A stretch of DNA of 58,421 bases, taken from Clostridia bacterium (GTDB taxonomy: Bacteria; Bacillota; Clostridia; Christensenellales; UBA1242). Shown here piece after piece: positions 5,030 through 58,421 of this stretch; within the stretch, counting starts at the first letter, position 1; every line of letters starts with the position of its first letter. Under the pieces are notes generated by a model. It saw only the letters and a program-made list of their open reading frames with translations. It did not search any database and was not told where the DNA came from. The stretch lies in NCBI GenBank assembly GCA_045597505.1, contig JAZLKE010000018.1, forward strand, positions 1 to 58,421, written 5' to 3'. A program made the translations under genes and the position numbers.

Positions 5030-5806
5030 TTAAAACCAACTGGCGACCATTAAACCGCCACCCAAAATTAACAAATAGATAGCAAACCACCGCAAATCAA
5101 TTTTGCGGACTAAACTTAACATACATTTAATCGCAACCACACCCGCCACAAATGCCGCGACAAAAGCCAACACAATGTTACCCGCACCCAAACTTTGTAC
5201 ATTGCCCCCACGTAAAATTTCGTAAACCAACGAACCCAAAATAATGGGTATCGACATCAAAAATGAAAAGTCCGTTGCACTTTGGGTCGTCATACCAACC
5301 AACCGCCCAGTTGTAATCGTTAAACCACTACGCGATAAACCAGGCACCACCGCTACACCTTGCGCCAAACCCACTACCGCCGCTTGCCACCAAGGGCGTT
5401 TTTCTTTGTCCGCCGTTTTGGTTAAGTACTTTTTCAATACAGTCGGCAACAACAAATACAAACCACAAATCATAAACGCATACGGCAATGCCGCCACGGT
5501 AAATAAACTTTCAATCAGATCATGGAATATTAACACGACCGCACATGTGACCACGGTCGCAATTCCCAAACACAATGTTTCCCGATTCCACGGGTGACGC
5601 AACAATTGCCACAATTTTTGGCGGTACACTACGACCACGGCAAACAGTGTCGCCAAATGCAACAAGATTGTCAGCAACAATCCACCGTCACTGATACCAA
5701 ACCAAGTTTCAAACAATAATAAATGTCCGCTGGACGAAATTGGCAAAAATTCTGCCAGTCCTTGAACTAAACCTAAAAACACTGCGGTGTACCAAGCCAT
5801 AACCAT
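5030..5806 (-). CDS. uppP: Undecaprenyl-diphosphate phosphatase
   Basis: Has the VQGLAEFLPISSSGHL and PGLSRSG motifs and is polytopic. The start is trimmed to the MVMAWYT methionine. Confidence 0.85.
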   Translation of the reverse strand: MVMAWYTAVFLGLVQGLAEFLPISSSGHLLLFETWFGISDGGLLLTILLHLATLFAVVVVYRQKLWQLLRHPWNRETLCLGIATVVTCAVVLIFHDLIESLFTVAALPYAFMICGLYLLLPTVLKKYLTKTADKEKRPWWQAAVVGLAQGVAVVPGLSRSGLTITTGRLVGMTTQSATDFSFLMSIPIILGSLVYEILRGGNVQSLGAGNIVLAFVAAFVAGVVAIKCMLSLVRKIDLRWFAIYLLILGGGLMVASWF

Positions 5807-6119: not shown

Positions 6120-6842
6120 ATGTCCACCAAAGAAGAATTGAACGCTAACATTCACGCAGGTCGCCGTCAAAAATTACGTGACCGCTTTTTGCAAAACGGC
6201 TTAGACAATTTCAACGAATGTGAAGTTTTAGAATTTGCGTTAGGTTATTGTATTCCGCGCCAAGACACTAACCCCGCCGCACACAGTTTAATTGAACGCT
6301 TTGGTTCTTTGGAAAAAGTCATGGACGCAGAACCCAACGCGCTTACTCATGCTTACGGCATCGGCGAACAAGCCAGCACCTTTTTACATTTCTTAAAAGA
6401 ATTTTCCGTTTATTTGGCAAAACATCGCCTGCATAAAATTAAAATCATCACACCACAAAATGCGATTGACTATTTACAACCGTTAATGCGCGCCTATTCC
6501 GTCGAACAGTTTGTGGTCGTTTGTATTGATAGCGCGGGTAACGTGATTAAAATTCATGATATTACTAACCAAGAATTGGACATGGTACACGTCAGCGTAC
6601 GCGAAATTATTTCCATTGTTACTTCGGTAAAAACTGCCCAAGTTGTTTTAGCCCATAACCATTTGAACGAAGACCCGAAACCATCACTCAGCGATATGCA
6701 GTTTACCCGCCGCTTGTGGTTGACCTTTGACAATTTGGGCATTAAGTTTTTGGACCATTTAATTTTTGCCGACGAAAAAGTCTACTCTTTCCATTGTACG
6801 GGTATGTTAGAAGTTTTGAAAAACAGTATTCCCAAAGAATAA
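6120..6842 (+). CDS. radC: RadC-like JAB-domain protein
   Basis: N-terminal HhH-like region and a C-terminal JAMM-type HNH...PS..D motif (LAHNHLNEDPKPSLSD). Confidence 0.75.
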   Translation: MSTKEELNANIHAGRRQKLRDRFLQNGLDNFNECEVLEFALGYCIPRQDTNPAAHSLIERFGSLEKVMDAEPNALTHAYGIGEQASTFLHFLKEFSVYLAKHRLHKIKIITPQNAIDYLQPLMRAYSVEQFVVVCIDSAGNVIKIHDITNQELDMVHVSVREIISIVTSVKTAQVVLAHNHLNEDPKPSLSDMQFTRRLWLTFDNLGIKFLDHLIFADEKVYSFHCTGMLEVLKNSIPKE

Positions 6843-10346: not shown

Positions 10347-12734
10347 TTACTTTGTAACTATAAAATTGATTAGTTTATTTTTGACATAAATTGTCTTTTT
10401 GATATTGTCAGGCAATTTGACTTTGGCATGACATTTAGCCACAACCGTAGCTTCGTCGTCCGCAGTACCAATTTCCAAACGAGCAACAATTTTCGCGTTG
10501 ACCTGTACCACAATTTCCACAGTGTCTTGAATTAACGCTTTTTCGTCGACTTTGGGCCAAGTTATATTTTTAATTTCTGGCCAAAGTTCTTCGGTAATGT
10601 GTGGCGCAAACGGGTTCAACAAAGTCAACAAAGTGTGATATTCGTAACGGTTAATTTGCCCTTGCTTTTCAATCGCGTTCATCAAAATCATAATTTGCGA
10701 AACTGCGGTGTTGTATTTCATAGCTTCCATATCCGCAGTAATTTTTTGAATTGAATAGTTGAAAATATAGTTTAACGCTGGACTGTATTTGTCGCCGTCC
10801 ACCACTTTATCTTGCAACGCCCAAACGCGTTGTAACAAACGGTGACAAGCTTTGACGCCGTCGTTACTCCACACCGCAACTTCTTGATAATCGCCAATGA
10901 ACAACACCCACAAACGTAAAGCATCAGTACCGTATTGGTCAGCCACGTCACGCGGGTCCACCGTATTCCCCAAACTCTTACTCATTTTCACGCCGCCTTC
11001 ACCCAAGATGATACCTTGCGAAATACGGGCTTTACAAAATTCGTTCATTGGGAATAAACCTTGGTCATACAAAAATTTTGTCCAAAAGCGCGCATACAGT
11101 AAGTGGCGGGTCGTGTGTTCATTACCACCGTTATACAAAGTAATCGGCAACCAAGCTTTCATTTTTTCTGGGTCGGCAAAACATTGATGATTGTGTGGGT
11201 CGCAATAACGGATAAAGTACCAGCAACTACCCGCCCAACCAGGCATTGTGTCGGTTTCACGTTTCGCGTCCGCGCCACATTGTGGACATTTAACATTAAC
11301 CCAGTCGGTAATCTTGGCTAACGGACTTTGCCCGTCTTTGGTGGCTTCGTAACTTTGTGTTTCTGGTAACAAAACTGGTAAATCTTTTTCAGGTACTGGC
11401 ACCATACCACAATGCGGACAATTAATAATTGGAATGGGTTCTCCCCAATAACGTTGACGCGCAAACACCCAATCATGCATTTTGTAGTTTTTGGTTGTGC
11501 GTGCCACGCCTTTTTGAATTAACCAGTCCGCAATTTTTTGCTTAGCTTCTTTAACGGTTTGTCCCGTAAATTGTTCCGAGTTAATCAAATTGGAATTGGC
11601 GGCCAAGTACACGTCTTTTTCAATTGCTGCACCGTCCAATTTACCATCAATTACTTGAATCATTGGAATGTGGTGTTTTTGTGCGAATTCGTAATCGCGT
11701 TGGTCATGAGTTGGCACCGCCATCACGGCGCCCGTACCGTAATTGCACAATACAAAATCCGCAATGTAAACTGGTACTTCTTTTCCGTTGACAGGATTAA
11801 TCACAGTCACACCCTTCAATTCGCAACCCGATTTGTCTTTCGTCATTTGGCTACGTTCAAATTCACTTTTGCGCGCCGCCGTTTGACGATATTTTTGTAC
11901 TTCGTCCCAATTATTAATTTGCGATTTCAATTGTTCGACTAACGGGTGTTCAGGCGCCAAAACGACAAAGGTCACACCAAAAATCGTTTCAATACAAGTA
12001 GTAAAGATTTTAATCGCGCCACCTTGTTTAATTTGGAAATCAACTTCGGTGCCGTAACTGCGTCCCACATAATTGATTTGGCTGGTTTTAATGTGTGGCA
12101 AATAATTGGTTTCCGCTAAATCATCAATCAAACGATCCGCGTAAGCCGTCATCTTCATCATCCATTGCGGAATCGTTTTTTGCGTCGTTTCCGCGTGACA
12201 TTGACAACATGTGCCGTTTTCCACTTCTTCGTTCGCCAAAATTCCGCAGTTTGGACAGTAATTCACATTGGCAGTGCCTTTGTAAGCAATCCCTTTTTTG
12301 AAAAATTGTAAAAACTGCCATTGCGTCCACTTGTAATATTCTGGGTCACAAGTAGTGATAAAGCGCGACCAATCGACCGATAAACCCACGCGCTCCAATT
12401 GTTCACGGAATGTTGCAGTATTACGCGCAACCACCTGTTGTGGCGGAATATGTTCACGAATCGCCGTGCGTTCTGCTTCCAATCCAAACGCATCAATTCC
12501 CATCGGGAACAAAACATTTTTTCCTTGCAAGCGTAAACGCCTTGCCATTGCGTCCAAAGCGGTATAACTGCGCATGTGTCCGATGTGCAGACCTTTACCG
12601 CTTGGATACGGGAATTCAATCAAAATGTAAGCATTTTCTTTTCCTGCAATATGGTCTTTAGTTTCAAAGCGTTTGTCTTTGCGCCAGACTTCTTGCCATT
12701 TTTTCTCAATAGCACGGAAATCGTAGTCTTTCAT
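10347..12734 (-). CDS. leuS: Leucyl-tRNA synthetase
   Basis: Has PYPSGKGLHIGH (HIGH), KMSKS (VKMSKSLGN) and a CP1 editing domain. 795 aa. Confidence 0.95.
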   Translation of the reverse strand: MKDYDFRAIEKKWQEVWRKDKRFETKDHIAGKENAYILIEFPYPSGKGLHIGHMRSYTALDAMARRLRLQGKNVLFPMGIDAFGLEAERTAIREHIPPQQVVARNTATFREQLERVGLSVDWSRFITTCDPEYYKWTQWQFLQFFKKGIAYKGTANVNYCPNCGILANEEVENGTCCQCHAETTQKTIPQWMMKMTAYADRLIDDLAETNYLPHIKTSQINYVGRSYGTEVDFQIKQGGAIKIFTTCIETIFGVTFVVLAPEHPLVEQLKSQINNWDEVQKYRQTAARKSEFERSQMTKDKSGCELKGVTVINPVNGKEVPVYIADFVLCNYGTGAVMAVPTHDQRDYEFAQKHHIPMIQVIDGKLDGAAIEKDVYLAANSNLINSEQFTGQTVKEAKQKIADWLIQKGVARTTKNYKMHDWVFARQRYWGEPIPIINCPHCGMVPVPEKDLPVLLPETQSYEATKDGQSPLAKITDWVNVKCPQCGADAKRETDTMPGWAGSCWYFIRYCDPHNHQCFADPEKMKAWLPITLYNGGNEHTTRHLLYARFWTKFLYDQGLFPMNEFCKARISQGIILGEGGVKMSKSLGNTVDPRDVADQYGTDALRLWVLFIGDYQEVAVWSNDGVKACHRLLQRVWALQDKVVDGDKYSPALNYIFNYSIQKITADMEAMKYNTAVSQIMILMNAIEKQGQINRYEYHTLLTLLNPFAPHITEELWPEIKNITWPKVDEKALIQDTVEIVVQVNAKIVARLEIGTADDEATVVAKCHAKVKLPDNIKKTIYVKNKLINFIVTK

Positions 12735-15236: not shown

Positions 15237-17174
15237 TTAAATATCCAAATCCTGTGTGAAGTTTGCCGCGTTGCGTTCAATGTATTCACGACGCAATTCG
15301 GCTTTTTCACCCATCAATGTTGAGAAAATTTCGTCTGCGGCAAACGCATCTTCCAAGGTAACTTGAACCAAAGTACGATGCGCTGGATTCATTGTGGTAT
15401 CCCACAATTGTTCCGCGTTCATTTCGCCCAAACCTTTGTAACGTTGTACGTTAGCTTTACCACGCGCACCCTTGCCCATAATTTGTTCCAACTCAGCATC
15501 ACTGTACGCGTAAAGTTCTTCGCCACCTTTGGTAATTTTATACAACGGCGGTTGCGCGGCATAAACATAACCGCCCTCAATCAATGGACGCATGAAACGA
15601 TACAAGAAAGTCAACAACAAGATACGAATGTGACTACCATCGACATCAGCATCGGACATGGTAATAATTTTGTGATAACGTAAACGGTTAATATCAAAAT
15701 CTTCTTGAATACCACAACCGAAAGCCGTAATCATGTTCTTAATGGTTTCACTTTCCAAAACACGAGCCAAGCGCGCTTTTTCAACGTTCAAAATTTTACC
15801 ACGTAACGGCAAAATTGCTTGGAAACGACGGTCACGACCCTGCTTCGCTGTACCACCCGCACTATCACCCTCGACAATAAAGATTTCACAGAATTTCGGG
15901 TCACGTTCAGTACAATCCGCCAATTTACCTGGCAAAGTAGTATTTTCCAAAACACCTTTACGGTGTACCAAATCTTTGGCACGACGCGCGGCTTCACGAG
16001 CATTGCGCGCAGTTTGGCATTTCAAAATCAATTCTTTGGCTTCTTTCGGATTTTCTTCCAAGAATTCACCAAACTTTTCTTGGACAACTTTTTCAACTTC
16101 ACCACGCATGAAAGCGTTACCCAACTTGGTCTTGGTTTGACCTTCAAATTGAGGGTTTTCCAATTTAACCGAAACAATCGCGACCACACCTTCCAAAACA
16201 TCTTCGATAGAAAGTTTATCGCTTTCTTTCAACAAGTTGACTTTTTTACCATAATCGTTAATCGCTTTCGCCAACGCGTTACGGAACCCAATCAAATGCA
16301 CACCACCTTCTTCGGTGTTAATGTTGTTCGCATAAGCATGGATATTTTCGCTGTAACCATCATTCCATTGGAAAGCTACGTCAACTTCGCTGTTTTTGTT
16401 TTTCTTGGTAATGTGGATAATTTCTGGAATAATCAAGTCCTTACCTTTGTTCAAACTTTCGACGAACTCTTTAATACCACCTTTATAACAGAAAGTATCT
16501 TTATGTTCGCGACCAGGACGCATATCCGCACATTTAATCACCAAACCTTTATTCAAGAACGCCAATTCGCGTAAACGAACTTTCATGGTTTCATAGTTAA
16601 ATTCAATGGTATCAAAAATTTCAGCATCAGGATAGAAAGTAACCTTGGTACCTGTTTTGGTCGCTTTACCAGTTTCGCGCAACGGTGCTTGCGGTACACC
16701 ACGGTTATAACTTTGATGGAATGTTTTACCATTTTGGTAAACTTCGACTTCCAACCATTCGGACAAAGCATTAACAACCGAAACACCAACCCCGTGCAAA
16801 CCACCAGAAATTGTGTAACCGCCTTTGCCAAACTTACCACCCGCGTGCAGTTTGGTCAAAACCAATTCGACCGCAGAAATTTTTTCGGTCGGGTGAATAC
16901 CGGTCGGAATACCACGACCATTATCCAAAACCGAAACCGAACCATCGCGTTCAATTGTAACGCTGATTTCGGTACAATAACCAGCCAACGCTTCATCAAC
17001 ACTGTTATCGACAACCTCGGTAATCAAATGGTGCAAACCACGTGTATCCGTCGAACCGATATACATACCAGGACGCTTACGAACGGGGTCCAACCCTTCC
17101 AAGACCGTAATGTCTTTGGCGTCATAATGTGAAACTTTTTCAGCCGTTTTTGGCTCTTTTTTCTCCGTACTCAT
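15237..17174 (-). CDS. gyrB: DNA gyrase subunit B
   Basis: Has a GHKL ATPase (LEGLDPVRKRPGMYIG), TOPRIM EGDSAGG, and PLRGKILNVE. The start is trimmed to MSTEKK. Confidence 0.95.
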   Translation of the reverse strand: MSTEKKEPKTAEKVSHYDAKDITVLEGLDPVRKRPGMYIGSTDTRGLHHLITEVVDNSVDEALAGYCTEISVTIERDGSVSVLDNGRGIPTGIHPTEKISAVELVLTKLHAGGKFGKGGYTISGGLHGVGVSVVNALSEWLEVEVYQNGKTFHQSYNRGVPQAPLRETGKATKTGTKVTFYPDAEIFDTIEFNYETMKVRLRELAFLNKGLVIKCADMRPGREHKDTFCYKGGIKEFVESLNKGKDLIIPEIIHITKKNKNSEVDVAFQWNDGYSENIHAYANNINTEEGGVHLIGFRNALAKAINDYGKKVNLLKESDKLSIEDVLEGVVAIVSVKLENPQFEGQTKTKLGNAFMRGEVEKVVQEKFGEFLEENPKEAKELILKCQTARNAREAARRAKDLVHRKGVLENTTLPGKLADCTERDPKFCEIFIVEGDSAGGTAKQGRDRRFQAILPLRGKILNVEKARLARVLESETIKNMITAFGCGIQEDFDINRLRYHKIITMSDADVDGSHIRILLLTFLYRFMRPLIEGGYVYAAQPPLYKITKGGEELYAYSDAELEQIMGKGARGKANVQRYKGLGEMNAEQLWDTTMNPAHRTLVQVTLEDAFAADEIFSTLMGEKAELRREYIERNAANFTQDLDI

Positions 17175-17314
17175 AATGTATAAATTATACCAGAAACGTG
17201 TCAAAAAAGCAACGTATTTAGGGCATTTCTTATATATATTATCCCCCGTGCAATTTTTCGTTTTGGCACTATTTTTCGGCGTTTCGGCGACATTTTTTCA
17301 GTCCAAAACCACAA

Positions 17315-17337
17315 AAGGACGCCACTCCGACGTCCTT
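17315..17337 (-). terminator. Rho-independent terminator downstream of tRNA-Gln(CTG)
   Basis: An AAGGACG/CGTCCTT stem followed by a U-run on the minus strand. Confidence 0.5.
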
Positions 17338-17344
17338 GTTTTAT

Positions 17345-17418
17345 TGGCAGGGGTGGCAGGGTTCGAACCTACGATGAATGGGTCAGAGCCATTTGCCTTA
17401 CCGCTTGGCGACACCCCT
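17345..17418 (-). tRNA. tRNA-Gln (anticodon CTG), CCA encoded
   Basis: Hand-folded cloverleaf: acceptor AGGGGTG/CACCCCT, anticodon stem AATGG/CCATT, loop CTCTGAC, T-arm GTAGG-TTCGAAC-CCTGC. Confidence 0.9.
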
Positions 17419-17492
17419 TGAAACAATTTTATTATAACACAAATTTCCCAAACACCACCACAAAAAAAATGACCACATGGGTCATTTTTCAA

Positions 17493-17765
17493 TTACATGG
17501 TAGCGTCATCTTTAATCGCATCTTCGTTGTTCAAACCGTTAATTAAATAATGGCGTGCAACACGTTCTTGCATCATGTCTACATACGGAGTATACGATAC
17601 AGCGACCGATGGCTCCAATCTTGCGATTAAACCTTTTATTTCGTTCAATAATTCAGCCGCCGCCGCAAAAGGCAAATCACCAGCCGAAATTTTGTCCATA
17701 CGTATTTCGATATTTTTTGCAATGATGTCATCGTTCCAACGCGTCTTTTTTTCTTCCATCATCAC
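17493..17765 (-). CDS. Hypothetical small protein (90 aa)
   Basis: ORF only; no motif recognised. Confidence 0.35.
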   Translation of the reverse strand: MMMEEKKTRWNDDIIAKNIEIRMDKISAGDLPFAAAAELLNEIKGLIARLEPSVAVSYTPYVDMMQERVARHYLINGLNNEDAIKDDATM

Positions 17766-17883
17766 CCCCTCCTTTCATTGTCGATACCTTATCATATTCA
17801 CTAAGTTAAATCAAGAGTCAAATATTTTAAGACATTAAACAAAAAGTCCGCACATGGCGGACTTCTCATAATTTTATCAATGC

Positions 17884-18699
17884 TTATCTTGCGCCTGGTT
17901 TAATTACTAAGTAACGGTGCGGTTCCACTCCCTCACTTTCCGTAATAATGCCTTCGACATCTTGCAAAGTCAAATGCACAACCACGCGTTCACGCGCCGG
18001 CATCGGGTCCAAACGAACTGAGCGTCCCGTGCGTTTAACTTGTTCAGCTTTGCGTTTTGCTAAATCGACCAAATAATCTTTACGTTTTTCGCGATAATTA
18101 CCAATATCCAAAATTACACGACGCGGTTCGTCGCAGTGCGTGTTAATCGCAATTGAACTGATAATTGTATTAATTGCCGCCATCGTGCGACCATTTTTAC
18201 CGATCAAACGTCCCACATCGTCACCGCTAACCGAAATGATAAATCCGTCGTCCGTATGTGAACTAACCACTACCAAATTGTCGCCAATCAATTTGAAAAA
18301 CTCTTCCGCAAAAGCCATCGTTTTGGCAAATTTTGGACAATTTGCATCAAATTCAGTTACCTTACGTGGTTCTTTTGTTGCTTTTGTTTTTTTCGGTTTA
18401 TCGCTACCAATGACGAATTCTTCGACACTGCCGGCTTCAACCTCAACCTTTGGTTCTGCTTTTGGTGCTTCAACCTTGGCTTTTTCTTTGGTATCTTTTT
18501 TGGCTTCTTCCTTAGTTTCAACTTTTGCTGTTTCGGTAGCAGTATTTTTTACCGTTACTTTAACTTGCATTTTGCGGAACATACCACCTTCGTCGACCAC
18601 TTCAAAATCGACTTCGTCCAAAGCAACGCCCAATTCGGCGCAACCATTGGTAATGGCCTCGTCAATTGACTTGGCGCTGACTGTTACTGATTGATTCAT
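17884..18699 (-). CDS. jag: Jag/KhpB-type RNA-binding protein (KH + R3H)
   Basis: Lies downstream of yidC with a 4-nt overlap. Has the Jag N-domain, a Lys/Glu-rich linker, KH-like GKNGRTMAAINTI, and a C-terminal R3H-like region. Confidence 0.8.
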   Translation of the reverse strand: MNQSVTVSAKSIDEAITNGCAELGVALDEVDFEVVDEGGMFRKMQVKVTVKNTATETAKVETKEEAKKDTKEKAKVEAPKAEPKVEVEAGSVEEFVIGSDKPKKTKATKEPRKVTEFDANCPKFAKTMAFAEEFFKLIGDNLVVVSSHTDDGFIISVSGDDVGRLIGKNGRTMAAINTIISSIAINTHCDEPRRVILDIGNYREKRKDYLVDLAKRKAEQVKRTGRSVRLDPMPARERVVVHLTLQDVEGIITESEGVEPHRYLVIKPGAR

Positions 18700-53642: not shown

Positions 53643-54020
53643 ATGAATACTCAAGAATTAGTAGAAGAAATCGCAAAATTAACATTAACTGAAGCTGCCG
53701 ACTTGGTTAAAGCTTTGGAAGAAAAATTCGGCGTTAGCGCAGCCGCAATGAGCGTTGCTGCTGCTCCTGTCGCTGGTGCTGCTGCCGCTGCTGATGCTCC
53801 GGCTGCTAAGACCGACTATGAAATCTTCTTGAAAGACGCTGGTGCGAACAAAATCAACGTTATCAAGGTTGTTAAAGAAATCACTGGTTTGGGCTTGGGC
53901 GATGCTAAAGCAATCGTTGATGGCGCTCCAAAAACCATCAAGGACAAAGTTCCAGCTGAAGATGCTAAGAAATTCGAAGCTCAATTGAAAGAAGCTGGCG
54001 CTACCGTTGAATTGAAATAA
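53643..54020 (+). CDS. rplL: 50S ribosomal protein L7/L12
   Basis: Has an Ala-rich hinge and the C-terminal domain [28 protein letters not shown]. Confidence 0.95.
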
Positions 54021-54044
54021 TTTCAACTACGCTTGAAACAAAAA

Positions 54045-54070
54045 AGACTGCCTGCGGGCGGTCTTTTTTT
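54045..54070 (+). terminator. Rho-independent terminator after rplL
   Basis: AGACTGCC-TGCG-GGCGGTCT followed by a T-run. Confidence 0.65.
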
Positions 54071-54186
54071 TATGTCATTTTTATTAATACAGTATTATAA
54101 CATCATATCAACAAATTACCTAATTTTTCTTGTAAACGTTGGCGGGCTATGTTAAAATGTAATGATAACAAAAGGAGGTTTATCAA

Positions 54187-54489
54187 ATGAAAAAATCAAC
54201 ACAGGTTTTGGAAAAAGTTTTCGACATTTTGGGCGAAATCATGGCAATCTTGACAATCCTACTTTATGCCGTATTGTACATTAACGCTAATTGGAGTTTT
54301 ATTCCAGAAAATGTCTTGAATGTATTAAATGTGATTAAGGAATACGCGGCTTTGGCGGTCGTTGCCGTTGTTGGTTTTGAAGCTATGGTTAAACGCGGAT
54401 TTATTTTCAAATTCTTGTTTTTAATCGTTTTAGGCTTCATCGTTGTAATGCAATTCTTCCCAGGAACAATCGAAAGCATTATTCACTAA
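54187..54489 (+). CDS. Small three-TM membrane protein
   Basis: Preceded by AAAGGAGG, hydrophobic throughout, and followed by a terminator. Confidence 0.5.
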   Translation: MKKSTQVLEKVFDILGEIMAILTILLYAVLYINANWSFIPENVLNVLNVIKEYAALAVVAVVGFEAMVKRGFIFKFLFLIVLGFIVVMQFFPGTIESIIH

Positions 54490-54505
54490 GACAAGAAAGT
54501 TTTAC

Positions 54506-54530
54506 AGCCCGCTTCGTGCGGGCTTTTTGT
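54506..54530 (+). terminator. Rho-independent terminator
   Basis: AGCCCGC-TTCGT-GCGGGCT followed by a T-run. Confidence 0.65.
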
Positions 54531-54545
54531 TGTTTGCAATAATTC

Positions 54546-54574
54546 TTTACAAAAGATAATAACTGTTGTATAAT
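54546..54574 (+). promoter_or_regulatory. Promoter of tRNA-Gln(TTG)
   Basis: TTTACA, a 17-nt spacer, then TATAAT, ending 15 nt before the tRNA 5' end. Confidence 0.5.
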
Positions 54575-54589
54575 CATAAATATTGCCAT

Positions 54590-54664
54590 AGGGGTGTCGC
54601 CAAGTGGTAAGGCAAGAGACTTTGACTCTCTCATTCGTAGGTTCGAATCCTGCTACCCCTTCCA
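54590..54664 (+). tRNA. tRNA-Gln (anticodon TTG), CCA encoded
   Basis: Hand-folded cloverleaf: acceptor AGGGGTG/TACCCCT, anticodon stem AGAGA/TCTCT, loop CTTTGAC, T-arm GTAGG-TTCGAAT-CCTGC. Confidence 0.9.
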
Positions 54665-54883
54665 AGCAATTCTGCATGCACAATAACCCTGTATTCGCCA
54701 GAGTTTTTAATGGTGAGTTGGCTATTGAACCAATTACGGACGATAATCGCCCACGGACGCAGAAAGAACTGCTGTGGCGATTATTTGTCGTCAAGTCGGT
54801 TATTCCTAAGTCCGAACTGATTAACATTAAGTTTATTAAAAAGTCGTGTAAGGTGTATCAAGATTTGAACCTACGAATGCGAG
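54662..54883 (+). repeat. Direct repeat, copy A (about 220 bp)
   Basis: Aligns with 57087-57305. By hand count, the first ~167 nt differ at 23 positions. It starts at the CCA of tRNA-Gln. Confidence 0.8.
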
Positions 54884-54906
54884 GGGCAGAACCAAACAAT
54901 GATTAA
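54676..54906 (+). CDS. Small ORF A (76 aa from the first ATG), paralog of ORF B; may be an N-terminally truncated copy
   Basis: Shares about 51 codons with ORF B. 12 of the 19 differing codons are synonymous in this frame. Confidence 0.4.
   Translation: MHNNPVFARVFNGELAIEPITDDNRPRTQKELLWRLFVVKSVIPKSELINIKFIKKSCKVYQDLNLRMRGAEPNND
54847..54883 (-). pseudogene. Decayed tRNA-Gln(TTG)-type 3' half (variable loop to ACA)
   Basis: The reverse complement CTCGCATTCGTAGGTTCAAATCTTGATACACCTTACA matches the last 37 nt of the tRNA at 54590-54664 at 31 of 37 positions (hand alignment). Confidence 0.55.
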
Positions 54907-54983
54907 TCTCGTGTAAAAATACATTTTTATAATCAGTTAATAGATTGAGTTTAATGTTTACAATTTAATTCTTTGTTAGCAAA

Positions 54984-55751
54984 TTAGTTTTCTTCTATAT
55001 CCAAGATTTGTAGGTCAATTAAAATTTCAATGAATTGACTAATACAATTGAATAGTCTTGTTTTGCTGTATTTTTTGGTTTGAAACTGAAATAATTTAAT
55101 ACCTATTGATTCTGTACTAATGAACACATCTTCATTCTCATCAATAAGCAAATTAGTTTTTAAGAAATTTAAGAACTCCTTCGCAGAGTGAATCAAATGT
55201 GATTCGGTTGCAACCTTAATGTTGTAATTTTTACTATCAAGTAGGTTTTTAGTATCTTTACCTAGCATTTGTTCATTATTATAGGAATTTGATTCAAACA
55301 GGCTTATAACATAGGATTCAATGCTTGGATAACTCAATAGCAATAAACCATTTTGCTCATCAGATGTTGTTTGGGACTGTTTTAATTTTTCAAGTAATTT
55401 TGATACTTCTGATTGCCTATTGTTAATGGGGTCTCTATCGAATAGAATATACACTGGGTTATTTATTAAATCTAAATCTAACTTAACTGCAATTTCACTG
55501 TGCATTTTGTCATAAAAATCATCTATGTTTTTGACATCTATTAAATTGCTTGTTGGAGCACTTACGACCTTGATAATTGAATTCTTATCATAACCATGTA
55601 ATTCACGAACAACTCCCTGATGTCGTGTTTGCTCTTTAATAGTATATCCTAGAATCTTATGGAAGATAGTCTCAACTATTTCTAATTCAGGGTGGTCGCC
55701 TTCTATAACAATTATAATTTCTCCGATGCGTTTTTCTTTTTTCAGTTTCAT
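54984..55751 (-). CDS. RloB/TOPRIM-like protein (AbiLii / AriB-like candidate nuclease)
   Basis: Has N-terminal IIIVIEGDHPE (TOPRIM-type Glu), the ILFDRD acidic motif, and LSYPSIESY resembling the RloB SNPxFE motif. 4-nt overlap with the upstream ATPase gene. Confidence 0.5.
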   Translation of the reverse strand: MKLKKEKRIGEIIIVIEGDHPELEIVETIFHKILGYTIKEQTRHQGVVRELHGYDKNSIIKVVSAPTSNLIDVKNIDDFYDKMHSEIAVKLDLDLINNPVYILFDRDPINNRQSEVSKLLEKLKQSQTTSDEQNGLLLLSYPSIESYVISLFESNSYNNEQMLGKDTKNLLDSKNYNIKVATESHLIHSAKEFLNFLKTNLLIDENEDVFISTESIGIKLFQFQTKKYSKTRLFNCISQFIEILIDLQILDIEEN

Positions 55752-56908
55752 GCTTTATAGTTTGGTATTGCTCCGAATTTTCCACTCAAATACATTTTTT
55801 CGAGATTTTGAGCTTCTCGAGGGTTTTCATCGGAGAATCTTTCAATAAATGAACCCTCATTTGGCTCAAAATCTATTGTATAAATTTGGTCAGGTCTTAA
55901 AATTCTAGAATTCAACAAGTTTGTTGAATGGGAATTAAAAATTAACTGGCTATTCTTACTATTCAGCATAAAGTATTTTACAATAACTTCTTCTAACTTG
56001 TTATGGAAACCACTACTAAATTCGTCAATCAATAATATTGAATGGGTCTTAGTCGCATAAATAATAGAAGGTAATATATTTATCAATGTTTGATTTCCAA
56101 GAGATTCCATCTCTAATGGTAAATTTAAATCCATATCATGTCTTTTTAAGAATATAATAGGCTTGTCTACTTTTAAACCTACGTACAGTGTTCCATTTTT
56201 TTCTTTAACTTTACTAACCAAGTTGTCTTTACTTTTTGATACAAAAAAATCAAAATTTATGTGTTTTAATGTGCTATTAATTTCCTGTATGCTTTTTTCA
56301 TCAAGTTTTTGAATCAGGTGAGAAATATTATTGTAAGAAATCGCTGTTCTTTCAAACGCATTTACATAAACAGAATTTCTTAAAAATTCCATAAATTTAA
56401 TAATTTGTTTATTCTGAGCAAACACATCATTAAAATAACATTTTTTTAATAATAGAACCTTTTCAGTGAATTTTCCATCATAGTCTACACATTTATTTTC
56501 AATCAATATCTTTCCACTACGCAAATGCCTATCTACAAATGGTGTGTCATTTATAATAAGTTGTTCTAGGACAATATCACCATTTTTATCTGATTCGAAT
56601 AAATAGGATATTTTATCCTTTGAAAACTTAAATTGATACTCTAAATGGATGTTTGCCTTTTTATCAAACAAACACCTATCAGAAAAATCCATTTGATAGT
56701 TGTCTTTAAACAGCATATCAAGAAGAGTTTTTATGGCTAAAATAAGAGTTGATTTTCCTGTAGCGTTTGGACCGACAATTAGTCCGCCTTTTAAAACTCC
56801 GTCAAAAGTGTTTGTGTCTTGTAATGATTGATACTTTGTAACTTCTAAATTGAATTCCCTTCGGTTTTTGAATGATTTGTAATTTTCTACAACAACTTTA
56901 GATAGCAT
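55748..56908 (-). CDS. ABC-type AAA ATPase (AAA_21/AAA_15-like; AbiLi / AriA-like)
   Basis: Has Walker A GPNATGKS, Walker B LLIDEF, the downstream FNSHS H-loop-like motif, and the N-terminal VENYKSF typical of SMC/ABC-like defence ATPases. Confidence 0.7.
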   Translation of the reverse strand: MLSKVVVENYKSFKNRREFNLEVTKYQSLQDTNTFDGVLKGGLIVGPNATGKSTLILAIKTLLDMLFKDNYQMDFSDRCLFDKKANIHLEYQFKFSKDKISYLFESDKNGDIVLEQLIINDTPFVDRHLRSGKILIENKCVDYDGKFTEKVLLLKKCYFNDVFAQNKQIIKFMEFLRNSVYVNAFERTAISYNNISHLIQKLDEKSIQEINSTLKHINFDFFVSKSKDNLVSKVKEKNGTLYVGLKVDKPIIFLKRHDMDLNLPLEMESLGNQTLINILPSIIYATKTHSILLIDEFSSGFHNKLEEVIVKYFMLNSKNSQLIFNSHSTNLLNSRILRPDQIYTIDFEPNEGSFIERFSDENPREAQNLEKMYLSGKFGAIPNYKA

Positions 56909-56967
56909 AATTCACCCCTATATATTTATGTACAAATGTAAAAATAATACACAAAGCCCGCGATGTA

Positions 56968-56986
56968 AGTGTAAAAAATTTACACT
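56968..56986. promoter_or_regulatory. Palindrome in the divergent promoter region between the ATPase gene and small ORF B
   Basis: AGTGTAAA-AAA-TTTACACT. Confidence 0.3.
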
Positions 56987-57025
56987 ATATTTTTATCATA
57001 TAGCCATAGCGCTTGTCAAGTATCA

Positions 57026-57292
57026 ATGCCTAAAAATTTATACAAATATGAAGGATTCAAAAATTATTTTTTCAATATAATTAAAGCCAAGCAATTCTGC
57101 ACACACAATAACCCTGTATTCGCCAGAGTTTTGAATGGTGAGTTGGCTATTGAACCAATCACGTCAGATAACTGCCCGCGTTCACAACAAGAACTGCTGT
57201 GGCGATTATTTGTGGTGAAATCCGTTATCCATAAATCCGAACTGATTAACATAAATTCATCAAGAAATCTTGTCAGGCGTACCAGGCTTTGA
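57026..57292 (+). CDS. Small ORF B (88 aa), paralog of ORF A
   Basis: Has an ATG start. The conserved core is HNNPVFARVLNGELAIEPIT...ELLWRLFVVKSVI.KSELINI. The stop codon lies inside the antisense tRNA-half remnant. Confidence 0.45.
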   Translation: MPKNLYKYEGFKNYFFNIIKAKQFCTHNNPVFARVLNGELAIEPITSDNCPRSQQELLWRLFVVKSVIHKSELININSSRNLVRRTRL

Positions 57293-57305
57293 ACCTACGA
57301 TGAAT
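57087..57305 (+). repeat. Direct repeat, copy B (about 220 bp)
   Basis: Aligns with 54662-54883. Confidence 0.8.
57271..57305 (-). pseudogene. Decayed tRNA-Gln(CTG)-type 3' half
   Basis: The reverse complement ATTCATCGTAGGTTCAAAGCCTGGTACGCCTGACA matches the last 35 nt of the tRNA at 17345-17418 at 29 of 35 positions (hand alignment). Confidence 0.55.
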
Positions 57306-57309
57306 TATG

Positions 57310-58158
57310 CTAACTATTATCCTTAGATTTTTCTTTTATGCAATATTGACAAACTCGCAACAATAATTCAATTGGACCAAATAACGTAGAAATTGTGCAC
57401 AAAATCAAATATAACATTTGATTGACTATAGACAAAGAATTCCAAGCATGAACCAAGTAACAAATTAGATAAAATGACATACAAAGCGACATCATCAACA
57501 TATTAAAGAGTGTGCTGTTTTCAATAATTGAATTTTTATATTGTTTTATTTCTTTATATGGAATAAATTTATTGACATAACTTTTATCAAGATTTTTATC
57601 TTTAACAACTTTTATCATCAATTCATCTAAATCTGATTTGTTTTTTGTGCCAAGACCATTAGCATAAATTTGCTCAATAATATAATCAATGCTGTTCTTA
57701 TATTTATTGTTAATTAATTTATAATTATGTTTTTCGCAGCCAATATGGATAGAAATTCCTTTTTCATCAGTAGTTTTTAAAACCCAAAAGTCTTTCTTCT
57801 CACACCTAACTGAACCGTAATATTTAAATAATTTATTAAACATAATGTTTGATTCAGCATAACTTTGTAATTTAATTAGAAATAATTTATTCTTTCGATT
57901 AATAATGAATGTATCATATAAATATTTCACAAATGGATAAAATCCTAAGTAAGTTAATATTAAGTGAAAATGAATATTCGGAGTTATAAAACACCCCAAA
58001 ATTCCAGTAGATTCCACTAGCAGTGAACCAATAAAATCACAAACTGGTTTTATTTTGCTTTTGTATTTATAGCAAAATCCAAGTTCGTACATGCAACAAA
58101 TTTCCATAAGCATATCCAACAGAAACAACAATAATAAAATTATATATACAATATCCAT
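57310..58158 (-). CDS. Hypothetical membrane protein (282 aa), very AT-rich
   Basis: Long ORF with N- and C-terminal hydrophobic helices flanking a Lys/Asn-rich soluble middle. Confidence 0.45.
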   Translation of the reverse strand: MDIVYIILLLLFLLDMLMEICCMYELGFCYKYKSKIKPVCDFIGSLLVESTGILGCFITPNIHFHLILTYLGFYPFVKYLYDTFIINRKNKLFLIKLQSYAESNIMFNKLFKYYGSVRCEKKDFWVLKTTDEKGISIHIGCEKHNYKLINNKYKNSIDYIIEQIYANGLGTKNKSDLDELMIKVVKDKNLDKSYVNKFIPYKEIKQYKNSIIENSTLFNMLMMSLCMSFYLICYLVHAWNSLSIVNQMLYLILCTISTLFGPIELLLRVCQYCIKEKSKDNS

Positions 58159-58249
58159 TAAAAAATTATAATGTAATTAATTACAAAATGGAATATGTCA
58201 TATTTATATTGTGTGTGGATAATTTTGTGATATATTGCTTTATAATTTT

Positions 58250-58421
58250 ATGGATAAAAACATTAACTATACTGAGAAAAAAAACATTGAACTAGTCAAA
58301 AATGAGCCTTTAAAGAGGCTTTCTAAAAAGAGGTATTATATTACGCCTATAATTAGTTTTGTGCTGATGATAGTACTTTCTTTATTTATTTACCATAATG
58401 ATTCTCAATTAATTGTTGATT
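58250..58421 (+). CDS. Hypothetical protein, N-terminal fragment (continues beyond window)
   Basis: The frame is open from the ATG at 58250 to the window end. It contains a hydrophobic helix. Too short for the ORF track. Confidence 0.3.
   Translation, partial: MDKNINYTEKKNIELVKNEPLKRLSKKRYYITPIISFVLMIVLSLFIYHNDSQLIVD

Follow-up and report, generated by a model that had tools for sequence, protein, structure and literature searches.

The two inverted tRNA-Gln-like fragments (T′) in the window, by which we mean the whole 58,421-nucleotide stretch of DNA analysed here, appear to be a conserved landmark of a mobile defence island, not something that regulates tRNA by antisense pairing, because each makes up the last dozen codons of a small conserved gene, X, at the tRNA-side edge of that island. 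We put the probability at about 0.6 that T′ is the 3′ end of X, that X is the first gene inside the attL of integrative defence islands, and that the tandem in the window came about through accretion or exchange. Two X-T′ units lie in tandem (Table 1): in unit A an intact X is followed by an AbiL-like gene pair, and in unit B a frameshifted, mosaic X is followed by the remaining island. We propose that, in one gut Clostridia clade, such islands sit at tRNA-Gln genes, at the extreme 3′ end (..CTGCCA/A, the slash marking the junction here and below), and that they run from the tRNA-Gln through X-T′ and swappable defence cargo transcribed towards T′ to a rolling-circle Rep (PF23343), an HTH gene and further cargo.

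Table 1. Positions of the tRNA genes, junctions, X copies, T′ fragments and cargo genes in the window
Feature	Position	Strand	Remarks
tRNA-Gln(CTG), unoccupied	17345-17418	−	ARAGORN; terminator hairpin directly 3′, then gyrB; used for empty-site comparison
Promoter-like site TTTACA-17-TATAAT, upstream of tRNA-Gln(TTG)	54546-54574	+	11/12 consensus positions
tRNA-Gln(TTG), intact; occupied integration target (attL side)	54590-54664	+	ARAGORN; Rfam tRNA, 60.2 bits
Junction core TCCAAG, left edge of repeat unit at tRNA CCA end	54661-54666	+	D1 begins at 54662
X copy A, intact 76-codon ORF, ATG start	54676-54906	+	homologues in relatives
T′ copy A, inverted tRNA-Gln(TTG)-like 3′ half, anticodon loop to ACA; encodes ...SCKVYQDLNLRMRGA of X	54847-54888	−	
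AbiLii/RloB-like cargo gene, 255 aa, weakly identified	54984-55751	−	PADLOC AbiLii, E = 0.0094
AbiLi-like ATPase cargo gene, 386 aa	55748-56908	−	PADLOC AbiLi, E = 1.3e-50
Internal junction AAAGCCAAG, core preceding X copy B, no tRNA upstream	57083-57091	+	
X copy B, decayed mosaic; ACA start codon	57087-57305	+	1-nt deletion near 57253 shifts the frame
T′ copy B, inverted tRNA-Gln(CTG)-like 3′ half	57269-57305	−	I2; 29/35
Membrane-protein cargo gene, 282 aa, convergent on T′ copy B	57310-58158	−	same gene in L001
Start of homologue of the L001 225-aa membrane protein	58250-58421	+	island runs past the window end

Origin of the fragments

Ungapped matching of 54847-54883 (minus strand) to the last 37 nt of tRNA-Gln(TTG) gave 31 identities out of 37, or 34/42 when copy A was lengthened to 54847-54888, and 57271-57305 (minus strand) matched the last 35 nt of tRNA-Gln(CTG) at 29 positions. 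In 300 shuffled windows, searched on both strands, the best match averaged 20.6-24.0 and the maximum was 24 (28 for the 42-mer), below the real matches. A repeat search also returned both fragments, listed as inverted repeats I1 (42 nt, 81%) and I2, and placed them within a direct repeat, D1, with copies at 54662-54876 and 57087-57300. The sequence-only reading had described the fragments as tRNA-Gln-derived and as lying at the ends of a direct repeat, and both descriptions were reproduced. An Rfam covariance scan of 54000-58421, with E values up to 10, returned no partial tRNA or other match at X or at either T′; only the genuine tRNA scored.

The same reading assigned the two copies to different isoacceptors. 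Ungapped cross-matches were indeed poor (22/35 for copy A against CTG, 25/37 for copy B against TTG), mostly because the two tRNAs differ by one nucleotide in variable-loop length. When gaps were allowed, copy A favoured TTG (35-36 vs 30-32), and copy B favoured CTG barely (31-32 vs 30-31), so that copy A separates the two isoacceptors clearly and copy B does so marginally. The TTCAAA common to both copies, previously seen as a sign of decay, need not be one, because genuine tRNA-Gln(TTG) genes of two relatives (L001 and L004) carry TTCAAAT in the T-loop.

In the comparison of related loci, the type of T′ tracked the island lineage and not the adjoining tRNA, and T′ was independent both of the cargo and of the neighbouring tRNA; copy B differed from the T′ of L001 at a single one of the 28 3′-terminal positions. 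Gene conversion from the adjacent tRNA was rejected, as the type of T′ varies independently of the isoacceptor beside it. Readings of T′ as a tmRNA-like or primer-binding site were likewise set aside, as T′ starts with TGT and not TGG and has 5-6 mismatches.

Gene X

X is a small plus-strand gene of about 70 codons that starts 12 nt after the CCA of the tRNA-Gln gene; copy A runs 10 codons beyond the family's usual stop. Variable alignment columns fall at 17/65, 11/64 and 44/64 of the first, second and third codon positions (chi-square p = 9e-10), and pairwise dN/dS is 0.05-0.35; X is a real gene under strong purifying selection. A profile search collected 15 family members, among them proteins of 47-86 aa with ATG starts, sharing the motif ..LWRLFVVKS.I.K.KLI..K.IKKSCxAY. 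Despite purifying selection, X of the L001, L004-L007 type has a non-canonical ATA or ATC at the aligned start position. An open reading frame on the minus strand, which shares the wobble positions of X, was rejected as the true gene: in relatives it contains stops and has no conserved start.

Pfam, PADLOC and PHROGs contained no family for X, AlphaFold2 modelled it with low confidence (pLDDT 62), and a Foldseek search of the PDB gave no match below E = 4.7 and was uninformative. X was absent from a viral contig collection, and a scan of JGI metagenomes yielded two X loci only. In L013 an X homologue lies 3 nt 5′ of a PF23343 Rep gene, within an element that also carries an HTH gene and a 611-aa serine recombinase, which ties X to the island machinery. 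A related element, L019, has a serine recombinase ORF that runs across an intact tRNA-Glu in antisense orientation, and this is a precedent for terminal ORFs that extend into antisense tRNA sequence. The sequence-only reading had missed that each fragment is the coding 3′ end of a conserved, selected small gene, and that this gene belongs to a mobile island adjacent to tRNA-Gln in many relatives.

The persistence of T′ would follow from its supplying the C-terminal codons and stop of X. Its origin most likely lies in an old junction where a convergent tRNA-Gln gene met, at its 3′ end, the X side of an ancestral element; the 5′ part of that tRNA may have been lost afterwards at the cargo hotspot. 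The postulated convergent tRNA was seen at no locus. The TTGAACCTACG core of T′ is invariant, three third-codon positions included, and T′ copy A has a 13-nt exact match to a TTG-type anticodon stem and variable loop, which hints at a constraint on T′ beyond coding, or at re-templating from tRNA.

Island architecture and ends

Eight related loci (L001/L002, L004, L005, L006, L007/L009, L008, L012 and L020) contain plus-strand tRNA-Gln followed by X and T′, and share the order tRNA-Gln, X, T′, variable defence cargo on the opposite strand, rolling-circle Rep and HTH regulator. The orientation of X relative to the tRNA is identical in 11/11 copies. The cargo varies and the backbone is constant: six different right flanks set in within about 6 nt of CTACG, and the gene next to T′ is a 282-aa membrane protein in L001, an AAA_14/DUF4143 ATPase in L005 and a Cap4-type nuclease locus in L020. 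The region upstream of Rep together with the Rep 5′ end is 98% identical between L001 and L005, and the wider Rep-HTH segment is 93-94% identical among L001, L005 and L020. Besides the AbiL-like pair and the Cap4-type nuclease seen as island cargo, there is a second cargo site on the far side of the HTH gene, with type III and EcoRI-like restriction-modification genes. Neither a second X copy nor a tRNA-like site was found beside Rep in L001 and L005, and Rep had no match in phage and plasmid collections.

One of these loci, L020, is a complete island, and it is from this single island that the distal end is defined. After Rep, HTH and further cargo it encodes a 588-aa serine recombinase with Resolvase, Recombinase and Zn_ribbon_recom domains, which matches the phrog_95 integrase at E = 5.5e-114; for this kind of island the enzyme was seen in a relative only, because the window stops before the corresponding part. 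The distal junction reads ..GCCTCTGCCAAG/CAAAAACTAAAATG.., and the sequence after the slash reproduces the flank of the neighbouring unoccupied tRNA-Gln(CTG): flank F′, at the distal junction, is near-identical to flank F of that gene over the first ~195 nt aligned. With attL as CCCCTGCCAAA/TCAATCC and attR as CCTCTGCCAAG/CAAAAACT, the two share the core TGCCAA. Empty tRNA-Gln sites with an immediate terminator occur in the window (CTG), L001 (TTG) and L020 (CTG). L020 has the features of a serine-recombinase integrative island at a tRNA 3′ end: a large serine recombinase, a short core common to both junctions, a native flank that resumes at the far end, and empty sites in the same or related genomes. 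The serine recombinase would be the enzyme responsible for excision and integration at these sites; no circular junction (attP) was recovered.

T′ itself lies about 180 nt from the tRNA with island cargo beyond it, and the distal boundary of L020, at GCCTCTGCCAAG and flank F′, lies elsewhere. T′ was therefore rejected as an attR relic of the adjacent tRNA-Gln, being on the opposite strand and not at the distal boundary. The sequence-only reading had likewise excluded a displaced attR because the fragments are inverted; the short distance, only ~210 nt, speaks against it too.

The tandem in the window

Four tRNA genes were identified in the window by ARAGORN. Next to the occupied one, the core in the window is TCCAAG, and in relatives GCCAA(G/A); the internal X copies (window copy B, L003, L010 and L011) all start at GCCAA. 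Local alignments found no direct tRNA fragment 5′ of these internal copies, being no better than shuffles (p about 0.12 for L010 and about 1 for window copy B, L003 and L011), and the idea that a displaced tRNA half precedes each X unit was dropped. The internal junctions of L010 and L011 resemble an arm-core-X arrangement in which the tRNA match is not significant.

The AbiL-like genes of unit A overlap by 4 nt. Their 386-aa product matches Pfam AAA_21 (E = 4.3e-18) and also AAA_15, and the 255-aa product has a weak Pfam RloB match (E = 0.069) that falls under the cut-off. The unit is flanked by TCCAAG and GCCAAG cores, has no recombinase, and shows no recognisable recombinase-type conserved arm at its right end. 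Beyond it, window positions 57100-58421 are 91% identical to 2002-3317 of L001, where the 282-aa membrane-protein gene directly follows tRNA-Gln(CTG)-X-T′. Relative to L001 the window has one extra X-T′-AbiL unit. The same AbiL/X copy B junction is present in another sample (L003) at 97.9% identity. X copy B is a mosaic, its left 75 nt being ~95% identical to copy A and its right part of the L001/L005 type (identities per 25 nt: 23, 24, 24, 16, 23, 18, 22, 17, 17). The best explanation of the tandem would be accretion or, between islands with the X-T′ module in common, homologous exchange; exchange fits as well as accretion because the right end of the AbiL unit is armless and X copy B is a mosaic. 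The window ends 1.1 kb past copy B, and from the 91% synteny with L001 we infer that the Rep, HTH and recombinase genes of this genome lie beyond 58421.

Alternative explanations

A rather improbable alternative is that T′ works as a site for a recombinase, being a pseudo-attB or a half-site mimic inverted relative to the tRNA end, through which the serine recombinase or Rep could invert the X segment or swap the adjacent cargo cassette. T′ repeats the arm and core of the tRNA in mirrored form, spaced as in a tRNA (GGTTC..CCTGACAAG against GGTTC..CCTGCCAAG), cargo diversity starts exactly at its outer edge, its TTGAACCTACG core is invariant even at third-codon positions, and A- and B-type T′ have isoacceptor-specific outer parts. 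However, X keeps one orientation in all 11 copies, no reciprocal site was found near Rep, T′ varies in step with the coding frame (V/A, synonymous Y and R), and homologous recombination between the two conserved flanks, X-T′ and Rep, would account for cargo swapping just as well. The fuller version, in which T′ works as an inverted mimic of the tRNA-Gln target through which the serine recombinase or Rep would flip or exchange the defence cassette, and X-T′ serves as an integron-style cassette anchor made from a tRNA half with a protein-coding role as well, seems a shade less probable again.

It is also unlikely that T′ is an ordinary att relic, the displaced 3′ half left by an island in a minus-strand tRNA-Gln beyond the right end of the window. 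As is common for att sites in tRNA genes, the identity of copy A does extend from the anticodon loop as far as the 3′ end, and both fragments have the same orientation with islands on their 5′ side. Against this, the far end of the complete L020 island consists of a short GCCAA core in direct orientation followed by the tRNA's native flank, with no intact minus-sense tRNA-Gln or integrase arrangement there; moreover, T′ lies within a selected ORF and travels with X, and simple tandem integration would not duplicate the flank X, as has happened here. The earlier proposal that the fragments are relics of integration into minus-strand tRNA-Gln genes is thus contradicted in its simple form by the L020 far end, and survives as a possible remote origin.

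We consider it very unlikely that T′ belongs to a folded single-strand att site, in which, after rolling-circle replication, a hairpin between the tRNA-like arm and T′ mimics the duplex tRNA-Gln target. The islands do encode a rolling-circle Rep, and the inverted arms, about 180 nt apart, are paired in the predicted ssDNA fold (z = -4.8). The integrase, however, is a serine recombinase, a type that acts on duplex DNA, and not an Xer/IntI tyrosine recombinase; the left arm of the circular form would be the island's own (GGTTCGCTTTGTGTCGTTGCCTCTGCCAAG in L020), which pairs poorly with T′; the 5-6 mismatches are scattered, with no compensatory change; and the loop is selected coding sequence.

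Least credible is the second proposal of the sequence-only reading, that plus-strand X transcripts pair with the 3′ halves of tRNA-Gln and act together with the AbiL-like ATPase/TOPRIM genes. Because no terminator-like site was found between tRNA-Gln(TTG) and X copy A, transcription from the tRNA promoter is likely to continue into X-T′, and in the predicted RNA fold T′ is base-paired with the 3′ half of the tRNA. Yet T′ occurs with unrelated cargo and without AbiL in L001, L005/L006, L020, L010 and L012; complementarity is only about 81% and is not upheld by selection, with 5-6 mismatches in the 28 3′-terminal nt and variable positions (G/A, C/G/T) that never restore pairing and fit the codon frame; the T′ type is independent of the adjacent tRNA; and copy B lies inside a frameshifted pseudogene. 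The proposal is unsupported, because T′ accompanies unrelated cargo and there is no selection for complementarity.

Significance

If T′ is the end of an island-edge gene, tRNA-Gln followed by X and T′ offers a usable landmark by which to recognise the edge of small serine-recombinase/Rep islands, a family not described before, which would shuttle anti-phage systems (the AbiL-like pair, the Cap4-type nuclease and restriction-modification genes) among gut Clostridia. X is a protein gene in which antisense tRNA sequence provides the C-terminal codons, and together with the L019 recombinase it shows that island-terminal genes of this group routinely read into tRNA genes. Should T′ after all be a recombination site, it would represent a new way to organise cassette exchange.

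Comparison with known systems

The attP hairpin of CTX phage and the attC sites of integrons are folded single-strand att sites. The present islands resemble them in having two inverted target-like arms close together in an element with a rolling-circle Rep; they differ in their serine recombinase, in arms that pair poorly in their own circle, and in a spacer that is a selected gene.

In archaeal integrases of the SSV type the att site lies inside an ORF. There is a similar placement here of a tRNA-derived, att-like sequence in the coding frame at the element terminus, as also in the L019 recombinase that runs through an antisense tRNA-Glu. X, in contrast, is no recombinase and is not split by integration, and T′ is antisense to the tRNA and away from the recombining junction.

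Rousset et al. (2022) reportedly described hotspots of defence cargo in phage satellites, P4-like ones for example, and in prophages, as with the P2 hotspots. As in those, conserved flanks (here X-T′ and the Rep 3′ flank) bracket anti-phage genes that are rapidly swapped. Unlike them, the present islands show no capsid, packaging or helper-interaction genes, and no match was found for X in the viral-contig collection or for Rep in the phage and plasmid collections.

The serine-recombinase integrative and mobilizable elements (IMEs) of Firmicutes have very short flanking repeats, form accretions with decayed elements (CIMEs) and usually insert within genes (Guedon et al. 2017, PMC5704250). The present islands differ in sitting at the extreme 3′ end of tRNA genes and not within genes, a relaxase or oriT was not identified in them, and nothing like the X-T′ module, in which a gene contains an inverted tRNA half, is described for IMEs. 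They are alike in being site-specific islands that encode a large serine recombinase and have very short repeats at either junction, in combining a rolling-circle-type Rep with an HTH gene as a replication and regulation module, and, as with CIMEs, in forming tandems that include a unit without a recombinase of its own.

Results

The inverted tRNA-Gln fragments noticed in the sequence-only reading are confirmed as real. By ungapped matching, we reproduced both of its figures: the tRNA-Gln-like 3' half (T') that forms the 3' end of copy A of a small plus-strand gene (X) matches the last 37 nt of tRNA-Gln(TTG) at 31/37, and that of copy B matches the last 35 nt of tRNA-Gln(CTG) at 29/35. When widened to 42 nt, the ungapped TTG match is 34/42 and extends to the anticodon loop. 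Shuffling the window 300 times gave best matches (either strand) that averaged 21-24 and peaked at 24, or at 28 for the 42-mer. A repeat search recovered the inverted pairs, plus an enclosing direct repeat whose left end is exactly the CCA of the intact tRNA-Gln(TTG), one of four tRNA genes in the window (ARAGORN).

Positions and state of the tRNA-Gln genes, their inverted fragments and the X copies in the window
Feature	Position	Strand	Source or state
tRNA-Gln(TTG)	54590-54664	+	ARAGORN
tRNA-Gln(CTG)	17345-17418	-	ARAGORN
T' of copy A	54847-54883	-
T' of copy B	57271-57305	-
Direct repeat	54662-54876 / 57087-57300		encloses the inverted pairs
X copy A	54676-54906	+	intact; ATG at family start position; 10 codons beyond usual stop
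X copy B	direct repeat 57087-57300	+	ACA at start position; 1-nt deletion near 57253

Both window copies were aligned with homologous loci (L numbers below) from metagenomes and Clostridia genome bins. In one plus-strand frame, variable columns at codon positions 1, 2 and 3 numbered 17/65, 11/64 and 44/64 (chi-square p = 9e-10), and pairwise dN/dS for X was 0.05-0.35. A minus-strand ORF, considered as the gene, shares the same wobble positions, but has stops and no conserved start in relatives. The X consensus is HNxPxFA..G...IEPIT.DNRPRSQQELLWRLFVVKSVIHKSELINIKFIKKSCQAYQALNLR*, in which the codons from ..SCQAY through the stop come from T', the usual stop (TGA or TAA) falling within the former tRNA variable loop. 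Among 1.8 billion representative proteins, a profile search picked out 15 family members; some are 47-86 aa proteins that start with a normal ATG and share the core as far as KKSCxAY. The start position is GTG in L010 and L011. In L001-type X copies (L001 1997-2003, with L004-L007, L012 and L020 aligned), it is ATA, preceded by ATC or ATT, with no Shine-Dalgarno sequence; ATA or ATC stands in place of the start codon, yet dN/dS is ~0.1, indicative of purifying selection.

X also contains an 11-bp inverted repeat (window 54744-54789; ATAATCGCC(C)AC ... GTGGCGATTAT, loop ~23 nt), present at the same place in L003, L004, L010, L012 and L020. One paired change, T..A (copy A, L010) versus C..G (L003, L004, L012, L020), is synonymous on both sides, and other loci have 1-3 mismatches; the repeat could be a protein-binding palindrome, an origin hairpin, or due to chance.

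Close relatives have a constant gene order: tRNA-Gln (TTG or CTG) on the plus strand, X-T' beginning immediately 3' of it, opposite-strand cargo (swappable defence genes), Rep and HTH genes on the minus strand, and further cargo. The T'-adjacent cargo varies by lineage and includes a 282-aa membrane protein, an AAA_14/DUF4143 ATPase, the end of a Cap4-nuclease locus and, between copies A and B of the window, an AbiL-like pair (PADLOC; AbiLi E = 1.3e-50, AbiLii match weak). A second cargo site past the HTH gene is used for restriction-modification: type III genes in L001 and an EcoRI-like methylase in L005. Sequences separate within ~6 nt of the T' motif CTACG, with at least six alternative continuations across loci, and L001 and L005 share 98% identity upstream of Rep, the 5' end of Rep included; a cargo hotspot is therefore enclosed by X-T' on one side and the Rep flank on the other. 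Over the wider Rep-HTH segment, L020 matches these two loci at 93-94% identity. The Rep-HTH segments at L001 4705-6691, L005 8583-10645 and L020 6226-8288 are 93-98% identical, while X genes and tRNA contexts in the same bins differ by 15-25%, a sequence pattern that suggests horizontal spread of the island backbone in recent time.

L020, the complete island, continues this order to its far end: tRNA-Gln(TTG), X, T', a 559-aa protein, Cap4 nuclease, a 59-aa protein, Rep, HTH, several small genes, a 588-aa serine recombinase (phrog_95 integrase, E = 5.5e-114), and a 94-aa gene before the distal junction. Unoccupied tRNA-Gln genes have terminators directly downstream. In the more distant L013, the X homologue ends 3 nt ahead of the start of a Rep gene with a rolling-circle domain (PF23343), and the element also encodes an HTH_3 gene and a 611-aa large serine recombinase; its X terminus, KKSCQAYKE*, lacks the tRNA-like extension. 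Another distant homologue (L015) lies in a ~0.9-kb insert between 18-bp direct repeats (5625-5642 / 6565-6582, 16/18) that belong to the terminator just 3' of tRNA-Asn(GTT), and faces that tRNA, opposite to the window arrangement. Genes for LRR_5-domain proteins adjoin X homologues in two unrelated contigs (L011 100-1455, L016 4701-5177).

Discussion

The description that fits the feature best is of a conserved module on the tRNA side of a new family of serine-recombinase/Rep defence islands, with a tRNA-like tail that is now coding. The clearly tRNA-derived part of T' spans the T-arm to the anticodon loop; because X in L013 ends KKSCQAYKE*, the acceptor-like part may for the most part be X's own 3' end. 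In the simplest history, an ancestral element would have had its X end against the 3' end of a convergent tRNA-Gln; loss of the stop would have let X extend into the tRNA, whose 5' part would later have disappeared at the cargo hotspot. The first step has a counterpart in L019, where a related element adjoins the 3' end of tRNA-Glu, and a 575-aa serine recombinase ORF (16436-18163) runs antisense through the whole intact tRNA-Glu(TTC) (18073-18147) to a stop 16 nt past it; terminal ORFs entering an antisense tRNA thus recur in this group. No locus retaining the ancestral X/convergent tRNA-Gln state was found among those examined. The L019 contig also carries a second Rep paralogue, a tyrosine integrase, a HipA toxin gene and, at 11350-11500, another short X-family ORF (..KQILWGFFVVRSVISRTALQVR*) ~550 nt 3' of Rep in the same orientation.

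Alternatively, T' may still be a recombinase site, a reading compatible with its mirror symmetry with the tRNA arm plus core, the invariance of TTGAACCTACG and the position of cargo breakpoints along its edge; however, the orientation of X is constant (11/11 copies). The T' core is invariant across copies.

The earlier proposal that the two copies match different isoacceptors holds in part. In gapped alignments, copy A clearly favours TTG (35-36 versus 30-32 matching positions), but the preference of copy B for CTG is marginal (31-32 versus 30-31). T' type tracks X lineage rather than the adjacent tRNA: L001-type T' lies beside TTG tRNAs in L004, L006 and L020, and beside CTG tRNAs in L001, L005, L007 and L012, and L010 is intermediate (A-type X, T discriminator, CTG-type outer part with a 1-nt insertion). 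TTCAAAT is a natural T-loop in the TTG tRNAs of L001 and L004. All T' copies have in common TGG to TGT, GGG to GCG or GTG, and TAG to TAT, changes that, read in frame, would eliminate a stop codon and retain the family motif SCxAY. It is more economical to suppose one origin, with subsequent drift limited by coding constraint; however, copy A matches a TTG-type anticodon stem and variable loop exactly over 13 nt, which makes one re-templating event in that copy conceivable.

Nothing supports the further suggestion that X transcripts act as antisense to tRNA-Gln in connection with AbiL/TOPRIM defence, which is at most a remote possibility. A strong promoter-like site precedes the occupied window tRNA-Gln(TTG), and no terminator was found between that tRNA and X, making read-through into X-T' plausible. 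However, T' also accompanies cargo that has no relation to AbiL, it mispairs with the tRNA at dispersed positions (5-6 of the 28 3'-terminal nt), its variable positions never bring pairing back, and copy B lies within a pseudogene. The long tRNA/T' stem in predicted folds is uninformative on function, as it is a trivial outcome of an inverted repeat.

In L001, tRNA-Gln(CTG)-X-T' leads directly into the same 282-aa gene that follows window copy B (window 57100-58421 versus L001 2002-3317, 91% identity), the extra unit in the window being copy A with its T' and the AbiL-like pair. Copy B has a mosaic make-up: over the first 75 nt it is ~95% identical to copy A, and the remainder is of L001/L005 type, where 25-nt bins show ~70-90% identity with copy A. 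The junction between the AbiL-like pair and copy B recurs in L003, from a different sample, at 97.9% identity. Internal X copies of L010 and L011 start at GCCAA as well, with unrelated DNA upstream; a tRNA remnant was looked for upstream of internal copies, and none was demonstrated at any. The window tandem arose either by accretion of a unit that lacks a recombinase or by homologous exchange inside X. In window 17345-17765, a 90-aa ORF precedes the unoccupied tRNA-Gln(CTG), which is followed by gyrB; the ORF has a 64-aa homologue upstream of the occupied L001 tRNA-Gln(CTG). Around the two tRNA-Gln genes, the window genome is therefore rearranged compared with L001; their spacing is 37 kb in the window versus about 390 nt in L001.

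The flanks 3' of two divergent tRNA-Gln genes in L020 (1-290 and 11624-11916) are inverted duplicates, near-identical over the first ~195 nt aligned (one 1-nt indel, one substitution); farther out, each encodes a small HTH-like protein, the two differing by a 12-nt indel. This locus would therefore reflect a chromosomal inverted duplication of tRNA-Gln and its flank, or a second element type at both sites. At the distal junction (..GTCGTTGCCTCTGCCAAG|CAAAAACTAAAATG..), sequence past the bar matches the flank of the neighbouring unoccupied tRNA-Gln(CTG); because native-type flank resumes there, the island sits at the extreme 3' end of tRNA-Gln. Only a TGCCAA core is common to both junctions, and in this the island resembles integrative elements of the serine-recombinase IME type, which have very short direct repeats (PMC5704250).
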